DNA of 64,000 bases from the sequence record PZ386974.1; one strand, 5' to 3'. Numbering within the stretch: the stretch's first letter is position 1; each line of letters begins with the position of its first letter. The position numbers were made by a program, and so were the translations under genes. Of the stretch, positions 13,153 to 49,010 are shown piece by piece. The DNA is from a phage. The notes under the pieces were generated by a model, which ran no database searches, was not told the DNA's origin, and saw only the letters and a list, made by a program, of their open reading frames with translations.

Positions 13153-13227
13153 TCCCGTATTATTTGGTTTGTGCCATTATATACATCAATCTCAAGATGT
13201 GTTTTGTATGCTTTAAAAACGAAGAAA

Positions 13228-13241
13228 GGGGCCGAAGCCCC
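13228..13241 (-). terminator. terminator hairpin GGGGC-ttcg-GCCCC + T-run after hoc
   Basis: minus-strand stem-loop then TTTCTTCGTTTTT directly after hoc stop. Confidence 0.55.
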
Positions 13242-13245
13242 TTGA

Positions 13246-28672: not shown

Positions 28673-28712
28673 AGAGTTTTCCTTTTAGTAATAATTTATA
28701 TTTATGCCAAAA

Positions 28713-28728
28713 AGAGCCCGAAGGCTCT
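28713..28728 (-). terminator. hairpin AGAGCC-ttcg-GGCTCT + T-run upstream of alt
   Basis: minus-strand stem-loop followed by TTTTTGG between upstream ORF and alt. Confidence 0.5.
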
Positions 28729-28916
28729 TAATCCACAATCGGGAGCAAAGTACGATAAACTTCAAAATTAGGGCCTTTTTCGTACGTATCAAAATTGTCC
28801 ATAAAAATATTATAGGAATCGTTATTAGGAAAATCTAATATAATCTGAGAGCAAGAGGTGGAAACATCTCCACCATCCTTCTTAGCTACAATAACTGTTT
28901 CTAAATAAGCTTTCAT
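28728..28916 (-). CDS. hypothetical protein
   Basis: 62-aa ORF starting at ATG overlapping ligase stop (TAATG). Confidence 0.5.
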   Translation of the reverse strand: MKAYLETVIVAKKDGGDVSTSCSQIILDFPNNDSYNIFMDNFDTYEKGPNFEVYRTLLPIVD

Positions 28917-33022: not shown

Positions 33023-33034
33023 AATTTCCTCAAT

Positions 33035-33050
33035 GGGAGCCGAAGCTCCC
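33035..33050 (-). other. intergenic RNA hairpin GGGAGC-ttcg-GCTCCC
   Basis: identical 16-mer hairpin also at 33974-33989. Confidence 0.45.
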
Positions 33051-33057
33051 AGTTAAA

Positions 33058-33423
33058 TTAGATATCAAATTCGTTAAGAACTACATCAAAGATTGCTTCG
33101 AGATGTTCAGGTTTAGCTCGGTTACTCAGGATATGACGAATCCAAGTTTTAACCAGAAGTTTACGATTAACACCATTCCAGCAAGGATGAGTACCTAAAT
33201 CACGTTGACGGAAATCATCATCTAATGCAATTTTGAAGTTGGAACCTTCCATTGTGATTGAAACCGTGATGCCATTTTCAAATCGCATATAAACATAATT
33301 AGGAGTCATATACTGCTCAATTTCACATACTGAACCATTTTTATGCTTCCACAAACAAACCATATCGATAGAACCAGCGATACCGTTAGAAACATATTTG
33401 CGTTCGAAGTTGGTGTAGTTCAT
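33058..33423 (-). CDS. hypothetical protein (30.x, 121 aa)
   Basis: 121-aa ORF. Confidence 0.6.
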   Translation of the reverse strand: MNYTNFERKYVSNGIAGSIDMVCLWKHKNGSVCEIEQYMTPNYVYMRFENGITVSITMEGSNFKIALDDDFRQRDLGTHPCWNGVNRKLLVKTWIRHILSNRAKPEHLEAIFDVVLNEFDI

Positions 33424-33497
33424 TTTATTCTCCAGATGTTTAAGTTGTTTGTTGGTACAGGTCTATAATAACATAACCTGTACCAAAGTAAACTGTT

Positions 33498-33866
33498 TTA
33501 TGCAACTTTAATCCAATTGTCTAAATTTAAAACACCTTTGGCTTTCATTTTTTCGATCAGGTTATCTGCTGTAATGCGTCCATTTTGATACCATGTAACA
33601 TCTTCAGAGTAACCAGTTTCTTCGTCAACATATGTTTCTGAACGAATTTTACCGGTAATAATAGTTTTTAATTCGTATGTGTCACCTGTGAAAAAGTTTG
33701 CTAACACAATTTTCCAAGAGAAATCATCTGAAGGACCTTCAGGGGTCATACAACTTACGATCTCAAATTGCTCTTTGTATAACATCCACTGGAATTCTTT
33801 AATTTCGATAGCTTTATAACCATCGTGGTCTTTACATTTGATGTATGAGTTCAGATTGATTTTCAT
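33498..33866 (-). CDS. hypothetical protein (30.x, 122 aa)
   Basis: 122-aa ORF with early-type promoter upstream (33909-33937). Confidence 0.6.
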   Translation of the reverse strand: MKINLNSYIKCKDHDGYKAIEIKEFQWMLYKEQFEIVSCMTPEGPSDDFSWKIVLANFFTGDTYELKTIITGKIRSETYVDEETGYSEDVTWYQNGRITADNLIEKMKAKGVLNLDNWIKVA

Positions 33867-33908
33867 TTTGTTCTCCAGGTTGTTTTATTGATTAGGTGGT
33901 ACAAGTCT

Positions 33909-33937
33909 ATAGTAACACATCCTACAGGAGAGTAAAC
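33909..33937 (-). promoter_or_regulatory. T4 early-type promoter (GTTTAC-N17-TACTAT)
   Basis: minus-strand GTTTACT, 17-nt spacer, TACTAT, upstream of ORF 33498-33866. Confidence 0.45.
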
Positions 33938-33973
33938 ATCTTTTTAAACTTTTTCTGCCCTAAACGCACAAAA

Positions 33974-33989
33974 GGGAGCCGAAGCTCCC
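33974..33989 (-). terminator. terminator hairpin GGGAGC-ttcg-GCTCCC + TTTTGTG
   Basis: directly after stop of the 59-aa ORF on minus strand. Confidence 0.55.
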
Positions 33990-33994
33990 TAAAA

Positions 33995-34174
33995 TTATGC
34001 AACAACCTTTCCAAAACGAGAAGCATCATCTCGAAGAACTGCACGTGCTCTGCGCATGATCTTCTCAACTGTTTGATTAATACGAGAGTTCGACCCACGC
34101 TTGTATCCAGCGCGTTTAGAGGTACCATCAACTTTCTTTTCAACTGCTTTCTTTGCTTTAGCTTGTTTTGCCAT
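33995..34174 (-). CDS. small highly basic protein (30.9-like), below ORF-track size cutoff
   Basis: 59-aa ORF MAKQAKAKKAVEKK... hand-translated; T4-like codon usage; terminator downstream. Confidence 0.55.
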   Translation of the reverse strand: MAKQAKAKKAVEKKVDGTSKRAGYKRGSNSRINQTVEKIMRRARAVLRDDASRFGKVVA

Positions 34175-34469
34175 TATAAATTCTCTTTAAATGAAAATGC
34201 AGGACTTATTGACATTGCCTGCGCAAGTCCTCAAGGGGAACATAGGTTTTGGATATTTAACGACAGGATAACCATAAACCCGTCATCATACCACCCACGA
34301 CTTAGACAGATAACCTTTTTCTGACGCGTGATAGTATAAAATACATTCAAGAGGTACACCGTAAAACTGCCGGGGTCTTAAAACTATAATGATTCGCAAA
34401 TCATTAATCAGACAGTTCGACGGCTCCTCGATTTTCTAGCCGCACTTAAGGTAGCGAATCACCTAAAAC

Positions 34470-35175: not shown

Positions 35176-35205
35176 CTTATTTCCTTGTTGTTTGACGATA
35201 GATTA

Positions 35206-35230
35206 ATAATACCATACTATTCGTAAAGCA
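35206..35230 (-). promoter_or_regulatory. candidate MotA-dependent middle promoter for gene 31
   Basis: minus strand TGCTTTA (MotA box) followed 12 nt later by TATTAT. Confidence 0.4.
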
Positions 35231-35232
35231 TA

Positions 35233-37104: not shown

Positions 37105-37225
37105 AACAATCCTTAGGAGATATAAACAGATTCTGATTCAACAATACCTTTAACCGGACCACGCCAGGCTAAGTTGGTAGTGCTCAGATTTATGACCATT
37201 CTCGATAGTAATGAGATAGCTCTCA

Positions 37226-37462
37226 TTATAGTGTTCCATATACTCGAGTTGCTTCAACAAGACCATCACTGCCTAATTTAAGGCTAGTAATCTGGCCACC
37301 ATCTTTAGGATTAACGATTATGAGAAAAGAACGTGGAGATTCTTGAATAACTCGTAATGTTGCATCCTGGAAACGTTCAGACACTTTATTGATGAGTGCT
37401 TGAGCAAATTCTTTTACTTTAATCTGAAATTCGTGCACTGTAATTGGGTTTTCACTTAGCAT
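37226..37462 (-). CDS. hypothetical protein
   Basis: 78-aa ORF with GAGGAAA RBS and early promoter upstream. Confidence 0.55.
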   Translation of the reverse strand: MLSENPITVHEFQIKVKEFAQALINKVSERFQDATLRVIQESPRSFLIIVNPKDGGQITSLKLGSDGLVEATRVYGTL

Positions 37463-37491
37463 TCTGTTTTCCTCATTGTGTTGGTAGAGTT

Positions 37492-37521
37492 ATAGTATCA
37501 CAACTCTACCATGTTGTAAAC
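37492..37521 (-). promoter_or_regulatory. T4 early-type promoter (GTTTACA-N17-TACTAT)
   Basis: minus strand GTTTACA, 17-nt spacer, TACTAT upstream of ORF 37226-37462 and DAHP synthase. Confidence 0.45.
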
Positions 37522-39589: not shown

Positions 39590-39617
39590 TTAGATTTCCT
39601 CAATTATCCATAGGAGC

Positions 39618-39647
39618 ATTATACTCTGCTCCCGAGAGTTTGTAAAC
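39618..39647 (-). promoter_or_regulatory. T4 early-type promoter (GTTTACA-N17-TATAAT)
   Basis: minus strand GTTTACA, 17 nt, TATAAT. Confidence 0.5.
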
Positions 39648-42205: not shown

Positions 42206-42235
42206 ATTGTACCACAATCCTTGTGGTATGTAAAC
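42206..42235 (-). promoter_or_regulatory. T4 early-type promoter (GTTTACA-N17-TACAAT) for rnlA
   Basis: minus strand GTTTACA, 17 nt, TACAAT, then GAGGA RBS. Confidence 0.45.
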
Positions 42236-42645: not shown

Positions 42646-42671
42646 AATAAAGTGGGACCGAAGTCCCGTCC

Positions 42672-48451: not shown

Positions 48452-48498
48452 TTTTGATTTGATAGGGCTACTATAACATAACCCTATCTGATTGTATA

Positions 48499-48903
48499 CT
48501 ACTTTTTAAAAGTTTTTTGCAAAAGTTTGATGATTTCGTCGACGTTGGTTTCATCTACGATACAATGGATTTTTGTTACACCTAAAGTTATACCTTCGTT
48601 AGTAGGTTGAGGCTTTACTAAATCTACCTCAGTAAAGTACTCAATAAAGTATTTGAACTCGTCAGGATAAATCTCAAAATAAGTTTCAATTTCACCACCG
48701 GCAGAACATACAGTACCATCTTCCATAGTTACACTTACTACGTTTGACGTATCGCTATCATAATCAGGTTCCATTCCGTTTACAACAAAACTAGGCCCGT
48801 GGAGTTCAATCAATTTTAACATCTTAGCGTTATTATGTGGTGCTTCTTGAACAAAGTCGTCTTTAAATAAAGGGTTAATGATATAAGATTTTCCGATTTC
48901 CAT
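48499..48903 (-). CDS. hypothetical protein (frd.3-like)
   Basis: 134-aa ORF; early promoter upstream. Confidence 0.55.
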   Translation of the reverse strand: MEIGKSYIINPLFKDDFVQEAPHNNAKMLKLIELHGPSFVVNGMEPDYDSDTSNVVSVTMEDGTVCSAGGEIETYFEIYPDEFKYFIEYFTEVDLVKPQPTNEGITLGVTKIHCIVDETNVDEIIKLLQKTFKK

Positions 48904-48992: not shown

Positions 48993-49010
48993 GGGAGACC
49001 GAAGTCTCCC
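48993..49010 (-). terminator. terminator GGGAGAC-ttcg-GTCTCCC + TTTTGAG after gene 32
   Basis: same hairpin as after genes 23 and 35, here on the minus strand. Confidence 0.6.

Follow-up and report, generated by a model that had tools for sequence, protein, structure and literature searches.

What does an inverted repeat do when its arms enclose the -10 element of a phage promoter? The question is raised by two intergenic sites in a 64,000-nucleotide stretch of DNA, referred to here as the window, which comes from a Mosigvirus (RB69-like), a relative of phage T4. A first-pass annotation had noticed the repeats at two early promoters and suggested that they could be operators for a dimeric regulator or hairpins in read-through transcripts. 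The genes around both repeats lie on the minus strand. Site 1 (33452-33486) is situated between the homologues of 30.8 and 30.7, and site 2 (48461-48488) between those of frd.2 and frd.1, the upstream gene being named first in each case; these are small, co-directional early genes and the gaps holding the two sites measure 62-74 nt. The sites are probably composites of the promoter-early stem-loop (PeSL) type, in which the downstream gene's early promoter, strong and of the T4 type, is nested inside an RNA hairpin belonging to the upstream gene. Their parts, in the direction of transcription, are:

33498-33866, minus strand: 30.8 homologue, the upstream gene; the site 1 hairpin would end up 3' in its read-through RNA
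33488-33493, minus strand: site 1 -35 element GTTTAC of the 30.7 homologue early promoter, 5 nt past the stop codon (TAA) of the 30.8 homologue
33476-33486, minus strand: site 1 5' arm TTGGTACAGGT, within the -35/-10 spacer; one half of an 11-bp perfect inverted repeat
33463-33475, minus strand: site 1 loop TATGTTATTATAG, 13 nt, containing TGn and the -10 element TATTAT (33465-33470)
33452-33462, minus strand: site 1 3' arm ACCTGTACCAA; predicted start near G33458, 7 nt past the -10
33421-33433, minus strand: Shine-Dalgarno GGAG (33430-33433) and ATG (33421-33423) of the 30.7 homologue, left unpaired by the site 1 hairpin
48499-48903, minus strand: frd.2 homologue, the upstream gene; its read-through RNA would include the site 2 hairpin
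48494-48499, minus strand: site 2 -35 element GTATAC; it overlaps the stop codon (TAG) of the frd.2 homologue
48482-48488, minus strand: site 2 5' arm GATAGGG; the RNA stem grows inward to GAUAGGGUUAU, with 2 G.U pairs
48468-48481, minus strand: site 2 loop TTATGTTATAGTAG, 14 nt, containing the -10 element TATAGT (48470-48475)
48461-48467, minus strand: site 2 3' arm CCCTATC; predicted start near A48463

The 9-bp perfect repeat with a 13-nt loop originally described at site 1 is present, GGTACAGGT (33454-33462) being complementary to ACCTGTACC (33476-33484), and is really longer, extending to 11 bp (TTGGTACAGGT/ACCTGTACCAA, 33452-33486). The 7-bp repeat of site 2, GATAGGG (48461-48467)/CCCTATC (48482-48488), likewise exists, around a loop of 14 nt. 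Alone it is unremarkable, its significance coming from its position; as RNA, however, the stem comprises 11 pairs, two of them G.U. Sequence, and orthology to early promoters of T4, both support assigning the two promoters to the early T4 type. On the minus strand they read GTTTAC-17-TATTAT (site 1) and GTATAC-18-TATAGT (site 2), each with TGn, and in the relative SA79RD the place of the site 1 -35 is annotated as a T4 early promoter and also as a terminator, a double label which the same annotation uses at two further places. The 25 nt upstream are 76% (site 1) and 84% (site 2) A+T, compared with 62% for the window. Downstream, 18 nt (site 1) or 6 nt (site 2) separate the hairpin from a GGAG with its ATG; GGAG is common across all early leaders. 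A plus-strand promoter read from the TATAAT within the site 1 loop was considered and rejected, having no usable -35 by eye and being absent from the promoter scan.

The two sites were said to share an 11-mer, ATAACATAACC (minus strand GGTTATGTTAT), and the window does contain exact copies of it at 33468-33478 and 48473-48483, and no others. The near-identity of the loops is simply that of the promoter family's conserved extended -10 region. The accompanying claim that other copies of the promoter lack a flanking repeat proved wrong. A repeat also accompanies three further early promoters, and about half of all those in the window have such a repeat. These copies, and a paralogous promoter with half an element, are:

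37482-37511, minus strand: third copy, TGGTAGAGTT/loop GTGATACTAT/AACTCTACCA, 10 bp with a loop of 10, bracketing the -10 of the cd.2 homologue promoter
39613-39632, minus strand: fourth copy, GGAGCA/GAGTATAA/TGCTCC, 6 bp with a loop of 8, bracketing the -10 element TATAAT (39618-39623)
42210-42228, minus strand: fifth copy, TACCACAA/GGA/TTGTGGTA, 8 bp with a loop of 3, in the spacer and slightly shifted
33875-33940, minus strand: paralogous early promoter of the 30.8 homologue; the 3'-arm-like GACTTGTACCA is kept and the complementary 5' arm is missing

The third copy has its -35 at 37516-37521 and is the orthologue of the T4 early promoter Pe133295; the fourth precedes the RNA ligase A homologue; the 3' arm of the fifth takes in the initial TA of the -10 element TACAAT. 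Together the five are spread across 33.4-48.5 kb, beside the homologues of 30.7/30.8, cd.2, rnlA, denA and frd.1/frd.2. Upstream of the 30.8 homologue's promoter lies a distinct CUUCGG terminator, complete with U tract; with site 1 this promoter bounds the variable 30.8 cassette.

Stems of this length and placement exceed what is expected by chance. The window has 2 perfect inverted repeats of at least 11 bp with a loop of at most 20 nt, where dinucleotide shuffles give 0.5, and 4 of at least 10 bp, where they give 1.6. Each of these four lies between genes: two are terminators and two are promoter hairpins. With shuffled flanks, the bracketing stem has P=0.001 at site 1 and P=0.02 at site 2, and the bracketing stems of 19 promoter-like intergenic sites sum to 100 bp versus 81.5 +/- 4 in shuffles (P<0.0005). 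As RNA, site 1 folds with -19.5 kcal/mol (z -4.4) and site 2 with -16.3 kcal/mol (z -6.2), the other three copies giving -17.2 (37482-37511, z -3.4), -12.2 (39613-39632, z -2.6) and -8.3 kcal/mol (42210-42228, z -2.5). A search of the whole window against Rfam 15 at the gathering score returned no match.

Comparison with the orthologous T4 promoters, which the first-pass annotation had named as a check, found that they carry a stem as well, whether identical or re-made. The T4 stems are GGTACAGG/CCTGTACC at 30.7 and GGTAGAG/CTCTACC at cd.2, whilst that at frd.1, AGGGTA/TACCCT, is in a shifted register; relative to T4, site 2 has a conserved 3' arm and a re-made 5' arm. Among relatives, the frd.1 promoter has four different stems. 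Across T4-like contigs from IMG/VR, 22 promoters out of 91 distinct ones have stems of at least 7 bp, where shuffles average 4.2, and the promoter family holds at least 32 distinct arm sequences; these family counts take in related sequences, a non-independence which de-duplication and clustering lessen but do not abolish. In an ungapped alignment of 81 unselected promoters, covariation reached 0.255 versus 0.186 +/- 0.016 (0 of 500 shuffles), slid registers giving 0.149-0.177. The only enriched pairing registers are i+j=51 and 45, and the inner stem positions covary. Averaged over the family in a single register the signal is modest (46% paired versus 41%), because hairpins are confined to part of the promoters and do not keep to one register; testing each promoter separately, or by its context, tells more. 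A search for related loci with the cd.2 protein yielded two only, near-identical, and covariation at that locus therefore depends on T4 and the family-wide scan.

The same family contains a second geometry, in which the spacer pairs with a Shine-Dalgarno or AUG 20-45 nt away. The 30.7 promoter of one relative (L017) has 11 bp of its spacer paired with the 30.7 GGAG (-24.3 kcal/mol, z -6.1), and T4 P30.8 pairs TCCTTTGT with ACAAAGGA; this ribosome-binding-site-hiding type is also seen in many other family members.

The surroundings of the elements differ from phage to phage. At site 1 the identity to T4 rises from approximately 45% (30.8) to 80-93% (30.7), T4 has a 76-nt insertion directly after the site 2 element, and the upstream genes vary among relatives. 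From the sequences at the three loci examined, it is suggestive that the elements sit at junctions of insertion, deletion or replacement between phages.

Several lines of evidence point to RNA of the sense strand as the form in which the repeat acts. Isolated stem mismatches, read in the sense orientation, are G.T in 19 cases, A.C in 1 and other in 2 (9:1:2 after de-duplication). The sense fold is more stable than the antisense fold in 46 of 56 cases, with a mean difference of -3.1 kcal/mol against +0.3 in composition-matched shuffles; within the window, sense and antisense give -16.3 versus -11.1 and -17.2 versus -12.7 kcal/mol. Sense RNA folds better because the imperfections are G.U pairs. 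At site 1 all pairs are Watson-Crick and the two strands fold alike (-19.5 versus -19.3 kcal/mol), and the strand argument there depends on relatives, namely one G.U variant (L005). A terminator for transcription on the antisense strand was rejected as a candidate, the plus-strand tail AGTAAACTGTTTT having no adjoining U tract and the G.U pattern favouring the other strand.

The second line concerns the start site. The GenBank name Pe133295 implies that the T4 cd.2 transcript starts within the 3' arm, and the start at site 1 was placed by analogy with this promoter. With the predicted start within the 3' arm, both arms are therefore present only in RNA coming from upstream. RNA started locally at site 1 is predicted to retain just the last ~7 nt of the 3' arm, and the resulting leader is unstructured (-0.7 kcal/mol).

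The third line is the association with the upstream gene. Tight hairpins occur at 43 of 100 promoters with an abutting upstream ORF and at 4 of 99 others (OR 18, p 2e-11) or, counted by cluster, at 30 of 58 versus 3 of 46 (p 5e-7), which makes them 15-18 times commoner where the upstream gene abuts. They are rarer where a separate upstream terminator exists (4 of 41 versus 43 of 158). Split in the same way, the window has the hairpin at 5 of 7 abutted promoters and at 0 of 5 others. About half of the early promoters with an abutting upstream gene have no hairpin, and the element is therefore not obligatory. Taken with the predicted start within the 3' arm and the better sense fold, this association supports the proposal of a hairpin in read-through RNA.

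Whether such a hairpin would terminate transcription is a separate matter. None of the five is followed by a U tract; their tails are A-rich with 1-5 T per 12 nt, compared with 4-8 T for the window's canonical terminators, and the missing U tract makes efficient intrinsic termination doubtful. A generic terminator scan of the window called none of the five, their loops being too long or a U tract being absent, although WebGeSTer calls in the annotation of one relative include such hairpins. A literature search found no transcript-end (3'-end) maps for T4/RB69-type phages.

These observations can be assembled into a model of a composite promoter and hairpin. The arms take up the first unconstrained bases flanking the extended -10, which is 10 nt long; the 5' arm lies in the spacer, the 3' arm runs from about -6 to +5, and it is the pairing rather than the sequence which is conserved. 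Hairpins occur almost only where a co-directional upstream stop abuts the -35 and a separate terminator is absent. RNA started at the promoter would begin within the 3' arm and have an open, A/C-rich leader; in RNA from upstream promoters the hairpin would fold just past the upstream stop codon, where it may delimit the upstream cistron on its 3' side. There it could act as a read-through attenuator, as a barrier to 3'-to-5' exonuclease after cleavage further downstream, or as both. Overlap with the promoter would shorten a very compact genome by ~25-30 nt, and the ~50-bp conserved block might provide a homology patch for the exchange of gene cassettes between phages. An unlikely elaboration is that the promoter -10 doubles as the pause signal of a terminator which dispenses with a U tract. 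Elongation complexes from a strong upstream early promoter, retaining sigma-70, would re-engage the perfect extended -10 on the non-template strand and pause ~10-20 nt downstream, with the arms closing beside the RNA-DNA hybrid and the transcript being released or arrested. If this were so, the promoter within the loop would be a functional unit and not a space-saving overlap, and both the centring of the loop on the extended -10 and the dispensable U tract would be explained. A related reading, likewise unlikely, has the hairpin stopping 3' exonucleases at the end of the upstream cistron once RegB has cleaved the GGAG a few nt further on.

Other explanations treat the repeat as DNA. That the arms are half-sites of an operator, at which a dimeric DNA-binding regulator such as an early-promoter shut-off factor occludes the -10, would fit the classic geometry of symmetric arms around a -10, and the mechanism of early-promoter shut-off in T4 is not settled (PMC2988021). 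Outer arm bases are moreover alike at some sites (TTGGTA...TACCAA, TGGTAG...CTACCA, TTGATA...TATCAA), although this likeness arises because a conserved start-region motif, TAYCAA, occupies the 3' side and the 5' side is complementary to it. The inner arm positions vary freely and yet covary, the arms differ from site to site in the window, and the family's 32 or more arm sequences, with four stems at the one orthologous frd.1 site, count against it. Neither is the spacing of half-sites kept, loops ranging from 3 to 15 nt; a bias towards G.T and not A.C mismatches has no meaning for double-stranded DNA; and presence of the repeat follows the abutting upstream gene rather than the promoter itself. 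The operator reading is rejected as extremely unlikely. A cruciform or DNA hairpin, serving as the target of a recombination or repair enzyme (e.g. endonuclease VII) or in pre-melting of the -10, accords with the position of the elements at mosaic junctions, with the fully Watson-Crick stem of site 1, and with a remark in the T4 GenBank record that an inverted orientation had once been reported for the 14-nt loop of the cd.2/cd.3 element; PeSL mini-circles in RB49/phi1 and the suggested recombination protein (PMC2839356) point in the same direction. Against this, the excess of G.T over A.C and the energy advantage of the sense strand indicate one strand as RNA, and pairing of the spacer with a Shine-Dalgarno or AUG, found in the same family, makes sense in RNA only. 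Cruciform extrusion is costly where loops are long, as with the 10-15-nt loops here, and plain homology would suffice for a role at junctions without any secondary structure. A DNA-level structure is accordingly judged improbable.

Concealment of the downstream ribosome-binding site in read-through RNA, as in T4 e, soc, 49 and I-TevI, where translation is restricted to transcripts that begin within the hairpin, is a documented mechanism (PMC3014915), and the second geometry described above (P30.7 of L017, T4 P30.8 and many others) follows the same logic within this promoter family. At the present sites it is very unlikely, the 3' arm stopping 18 nt (site 1) or 6 nt (site 2) short of an unpaired GGAG and the minimum free energy folds keeping Shine-Dalgarno and AUG free at both. 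The repeats might also be non-functional by-products of mutation, created by quasi-palindrome correction through template switching in replication, an activity for which T4-type polymerases are known. De Boer and Ripley are said to have shown in 1984 that quasi-palindromes template mutations in T4 rII. Such a process would produce arms that are often perfect across 10-11 bp, a site 2 5' arm re-made in another register relative to T4, and the matched one-base insertions of one family pair (GGCTAT/ATAGCC versus GGTCTAT/ATAGACC). It accounts for compensatory changes but not for centring on the -10, and it leaves the association with an abutting gene and the sense-strand G.U bias unexplained; that the repeats are mere by-products is highly improbable.

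The finding of a promoter in a hairpin is real but ordinary, since the PeSL cassette of T4-like phages has already been described and a relative's GenBank record already has overlapping promoter and terminator features at the place of site 1. Its use lies in documentation of the element in RB69-type phages, and of its -10-bracketing position at three T4 early promoters. The sequence comparisons further indicate selection on the hairpin as RNA of the sense strand, rather than as a DNA operator or cruciform, and it appears to be specific to places where the upstream gene leaves a separate terminator no room; the same promoter family also makes hairpins which hide ribosome-binding sites. In annotation, such sites are better labelled as composite promoter/3'-hairpin elements than as plain terminators, and for phage engineering they represent natural cassette boundaries.

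A number of parallels can be drawn with known systems, the closest being the PeSL cassettes of RB49/phi1 (Arbiol et al. 2010, PMC2839356), also found in PST/T4 and nt-1/KVP40 (Comeau et al. 2014, PMC4122927). A literature search for earlier reports of dyad symmetry at T4 early promoters found nothing beyond the two PeSL papers and two Virology Journal reviews, and RB69-type phages are not mentioned in PMC2839356 or PMC4122927. As in PeSLs, an intergenic early promoter with AT-rich sequence upstream is followed by the Shine-Dalgarno and ATG of a small gene, and a stable stem-loop overlaps the promoter. It brackets the -10, the same class of position as in phi1, whose PeSL stem-loops lie most often between -35 and -10 or overlap the -10 (PMC2839356). 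Several dispersed copies accompany small non-essential genes or genes of unknown function in plastic regions, at indel or replacement junctions. The site 1 and site 2 promoters, known here from their sequence, fit the PST/T4 PeSL consensus TTTACW-N17-TAYWAT (PMC4122927). They differ from the described PeSLs in being of the T4 type (GTTTAC...TAnnnT) and not near-perfect TTGACA/TATAAT, and their stems are of mixed sequence in place of polyG/polyC. The PST/T4 PeSL stem-loops were published as lying just upstream of the promoter, whereas those described here surround the -10; the -10-bracketing position in T-evens is thus our reading of the sequences and not a published statement. One PeSL stem-loop lowered expression of a downstream lacZ, and in RB49/phi1 mini-circles between PeSLs were demonstrated, the authors speculating on a DNA-binding recombination protein (PMC2839356).

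PeSL-like elements with T4 early promoters are also attributed to the T-even IP loci (Repoila et al. 1994, as cited in PMC2839356). As represented there, these resemble the present elements in being weaker, AT-richer stem-loops of variable size which flank variable small genes in T-even coliphages; the account covers two IP loci only, while the elements of the window occupy the 30.x, cd.x, pseT/rnlA and frd.x regions. With intrinsic terminators, including the CUUCGG-loop form common in T4-type genomes, the elements share a stable intergenic stem-loop placed right after a stop codon. They lack a U tract, however, and have loops of 8-14 nt, not 3-8, with the -10 inside; the 42210-42228 copy alone has a loop of 3 nt, and it too is without a U tract. 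Finally, in T4 e, soc, 49 and I-TevI a promoter lies inside a hairpin which hides the ribosome-binding site in the long RNA (PMC3014915). Both there and here, read-through RNA folds the hairpin and locally started RNA is without the 5' arm. In those genes the 3' arm hides the Shine-Dalgarno or AUG and the promoter is late or middle, whereas at site 1 and site 2 the ribosome-binding site is unpaired and the promoter is early.

The window is part of the genome of an RB69-like T-even phage of the genus Mosigvirus, and the 1-kb stretch around site 1 shares 96–99% identity with many RB69-like phages. The minus strand carries the genes around both sites; the homologues of 30.8 and 30.7 are 74 nt apart, with site 1 between them, and those of frd.2 and frd.1 are 62 nt apart, with site 2 between them. 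The promoter at site 1 is of the T4 early type (GTTTAC, a 17-nt spacer, TGn and TATTAT). The first-pass annotation had described inverted repeats bracketing the −10 element at both sites, and both are present, that at site 1 being perfect over 11 bp. The 11-mer it noted in common was likewise recovered at both, and an alignment of nine window promoters identifies it as the conserved extended −10 of the promoter family. The observation is real except in its claim of uniqueness: other copies had been said to lack the flanking repeat, which is wrong, as three further early promoters in the window carry one. Five other window early promoters fold no better than shuffles.

Promoter-embedded inverted repeats in the window, with the genes flanking site 1
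33498–33866, minus strand: 30.8 homologue, upstream of site 1
33452–33486, minus strand: site 1, an 11-bp perfect inverted repeat formed by spacer and start region, loop 13 nt; reads TAA-AACA-GTTTAC-T-TTGGTACAGGT-TATGTTATTATAG-ACCTGTACCAA-...-GGAG-AATAAA-ATG
33058–33423, minus strand: 30.7 homologue, downstream of site 1
48461–48488, minus strand: site 2, TAG/GTATAC-18-TATAGT, arms GATAGGG/CCCTATC, 14-nt loop
37482–37511: third copy, arms TGGTAGAGTT/AACTCTACCA, loop GTGATACTAT, −17.2 kcal/mol, z −3.4
39613–39632: fourth copy, arms GGAGCA/TGCTCC, z −2.6
42210–42228: fifth copy, arms TACCACAA/TTGTGGTA, slightly shifted upstream, z −2.5

Perfect inverted repeats of at least 11 bp (loop up to 20 nt) number 2 in the window versus 0.5 in dinucleotide shuffles, and those of at least 10 bp number 4 versus 1.6; these four are all intergenic, two being terminators and two promoter hairpins. 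When the −10 was left in place and only its flanks were shuffled, a bracketing stem of the observed length had a P of 0.001 at site 1 and of 0.02 at site 2, and stems summed over 19 promoter-like intergenic sites reached 100 bp versus 81.5±4 in shuffles (P<0.0005). As RNA, site 1 folds at −19.5 kcal/mol (z −4.4) and site 2, where two added G·U pairs give 11 pairs, at −16.3 kcal/mol (z −6.2).

The comparison with orthologous T4 promoters, which the annotation had proposed, revealed stems at 30.7, cd.2/cd.3 and frd.1. The T4 30.7 promoter has the same stem as site 1 (GGTACAGG/CCTGTACC), whilst cd.2/cd.3 has GGTAGAG/CTCTACC and frd.1 AGGGTA/TACCCT. At frd.1 the 3' side, CCCTATCAAA, is conserved between T4 and the window, and the 5' arm has been re-made in another register; IMG/VR relatives have four different stems here, each around the −10 (GATAGGG/CCCTATC, AGGGTA/TACCCT, AGGCTAT/ATAGCCT and ATGGGGCT/GGTCCCAT, the last with G·U pairs). 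In the T4 GenBank record the 14-nt cd.2/cd.3 loop between GGTAGAG and CTCTACC coincides precisely with a misc_feature at 133300–133313, "inverted complement of previously reported sequence", whose note "corrects the early promoter Pe133295"; this loop was once read, or cloned, flipped.

An IMG/VR search with the pattern GTTTAC-N14-GTGATACTAT gave 91–93 distinct promoters in T4-like contigs. Of 91 promoters, 22 have a −10 bracketed by a stem of at least 7 bp and 10 by one of at least 10 bp, against a shuffle mean of 4.2 bp. The arms comprise at least 32 unrelated sequences, and enrichment is confined to two registers, each with the extended −10 at its centre. In an unselected, ungapped alignment of 81 promoters, paired cells in the tight register made up 46.1% versus 41.1±1.4 (1/500 shuffles; slid registers 35.7–42.1), and the covariation score was 0.255 versus 0.186±0.016 (0/500; slid registers 0.149–0.177). 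The family adopts two geometries: a tight hairpin whose arms abut the 10-nt extended −10, and a long-range helix in which bases just after the −35 pair with the downstream Shine-Dalgarno or AUG. The latter is found at the 30.7 promoter of one relative (IMGVR_UViG_3300045988_118042, ~520–600; 11 bp, −24.3 kcal/mol, z −6.1), where the spacer pairs with the Shine-Dalgarno as CTCCGTTGTAT...ATACAACGGAG, and at T4 P30.8 (130254–130363; TCCTTTGT...ACAAAGGA). These two helices would hide the ribosome-binding site only in read-through RNA, extending to early promoters a principle familiar from T4 e, soc, 49 and I-TevI. Such a switch failed its test at sites 1 and 2.

Two readings had been offered, an operator for a dimeric regulator and a hairpin in read-through RNA. 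The operator is rejected, since the arms are not conserved. A DNA-level or strand-neutral constraint predicts G·T and A·C mismatches at about 1:1, because the two transitions of a Watson-Crick pair give one of each; isolated mismatches within helices are 19 G·T, 1 A·C and 2 other (9, 1 and 2 after de-duplication by local context). Single substitutions produce G·U in the sense RNA in one relative at site 1 (CTTGTACC) and in two at the 37482 site (TGGTGGAGTT). Sense folds better than antisense at 46 of 56 promoters, by a mean of −3.1 kcal/mol versus +0.3 in same-composition shuffles; the values are −16.3 versus −11.1 kcal/mol at site 2 and −17.2 versus −12.7 at 37482, whilst site 1, all Watson-Crick, folds equally on both strands. 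Since the predicted start site falls in the 3' arm, both arms are present only in RNA from upstream; leaders of RNA begun at the promoter itself have no structure (−0.7 and −1.8 kcal/mol). If the name Pe133295, given to the T4 cd.2/cd.3 promoter, is read as a start coordinate, transcription there would begin at an A inside CTCTACC. The G·T bias, sense-strand folding and start position thus support the read-through hairpin.

This hairpin is tied to the upstream gene. Seven early promoters of the window have their −35 directly against the stop of a co-directional gene, and 5 of these 7 embed a hairpin, versus 0 of 5 others: 33914 and 48938 have a separate upstream CUUCGG terminator with a U tract, 10201 and 52236 lie in divergent gaps, and 62868 follows a long spacer. 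Among 199 distinct promoters hairpins occur in 43/100 abutted and 4/99 others (odds ratio 18, p 2e-11), and among 104 sequence clusters in 30/58 and 3/46 (p 5e-7); promoters with their own terminator further upstream carry them less often (4/41 versus 43/158). The hairpin therefore behaves as a 3'-end feature of the upstream gene, folded into the promoter where there is no room elsewhere. C(UUCG)G hairpins, which are extra-stable, are a classic element between genes in T4-type genomes, and here they act as separate terminators alternating with the promoter-embedded ones.

Other minus-strand features
13226–13243, 28712–28729, 33034–33051, 42654–42667, 48993–49010 and ~33965–33985: C(UUCG)G-tetraloop intergenic hairpins, most followed by a U tract
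34129–34469: 341-nt non-coding stretch separating the homologues of rIII and 30.9, most of it conserved in T4 (130541–130784), with ~100 nt absent from T4 and an 8-bp hairpin, TAATGATT-tgcg-AATCATTA (34387–34406); it has no Rfam match and could be a leader or small RNA
35176–35232: site resembling a MotA-type middle promoter (GCTT...TATTAT), upstream of the gene 31 homologue, its −10 flanked by the bulged inverted repeat CGA(A)TAG...CTATCG; possibly an analogue of the "PmSL" reported for phage nt-1
36112–37104: 330-aa DAHP synthase homologue downstream of the cd.2 homologue, annotated in relatives as Tyr-sensitive phospho-2-dehydro-3-deoxyheptonate aldolase
37105–37228: 121-nt spacer directly after the cd.2 stop codon, with hairpin TAATGAGA-gcta-TCTCATTA

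None of the five embedded hairpins is followed by a U tract, their A-rich tails holding 1–5 T in 12 nt versus 4–8 in the window's canonical terminators, so that a classical intrinsic terminator, which failed this test, is unlikely. No Rfam family matched. Published work holds that the stem-loop of the promoter-early stem-loop cassette (PeSL) attenuates transcription from upstream, and one RB49/phi1 example lowered lacZ expression to the same degree as rrnB T1 (PMC2839356). An equally plausible role would be a barrier to 3'-exonucleases protecting the upstream cistron once the RNA has been cut within the A-rich leader or at GGAG. It is improbable that the embedded −10 acts as a sigma-dependent pause, allowing the flanking arms to stop read-through with no U tract. 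A literature search found no transcript-end data for T4 or RB69-type phages.

At the three loci examined, the elements also lie at mosaic junctions. Identity to T4 stands at ~90% for 30.9 and ~45% for 30.8, climbs at the site 1 element to 80–93% in 30.7, and drops past the hairpin downstream of 30.7; the 30.8 and 30.7 promoters, paralogous over ~70 nt, flank the variable 30.8 cassette. Directly after the site 2 element T4 has a 76-nt insertion (~146040–146115, separating frd.1 from its promoter hairpin; the window lacks it at ~48452) with a 22-codon mini-ORF, which is hydrophobic (MFAPYIMAAVMLVCLYLLIKAC), has its own Shine-Dalgarno and is unannotated in the T4 record. Around cd.2, the element is conserved with T4 better than anything near it (87%), and the upstream genes at both sites differ among relatives. 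PeSLs have been described as behaving in this way.

At the level of sequence the window element has every feature of the PeSL. Its early promoter overlaps a stem-loop, is preceded by AT-rich sequence and is followed by a Shine-Dalgarno and ATG; the copies are dispersed, adjoin small genes and sit at junctions. The T-even analogues have been described as T4 early promoters with weaker, AT-richer stems (PMC2839356), and those of PST/T4 were depicted as lying immediately before the promoter (PMC4122927); neither paper mentions RB69-type phages. In the GenBank record of the relative SA79RD, terminator and early-promoter features already overlap at site 1. The window elements are new members of an already known kind, and of modest interest.
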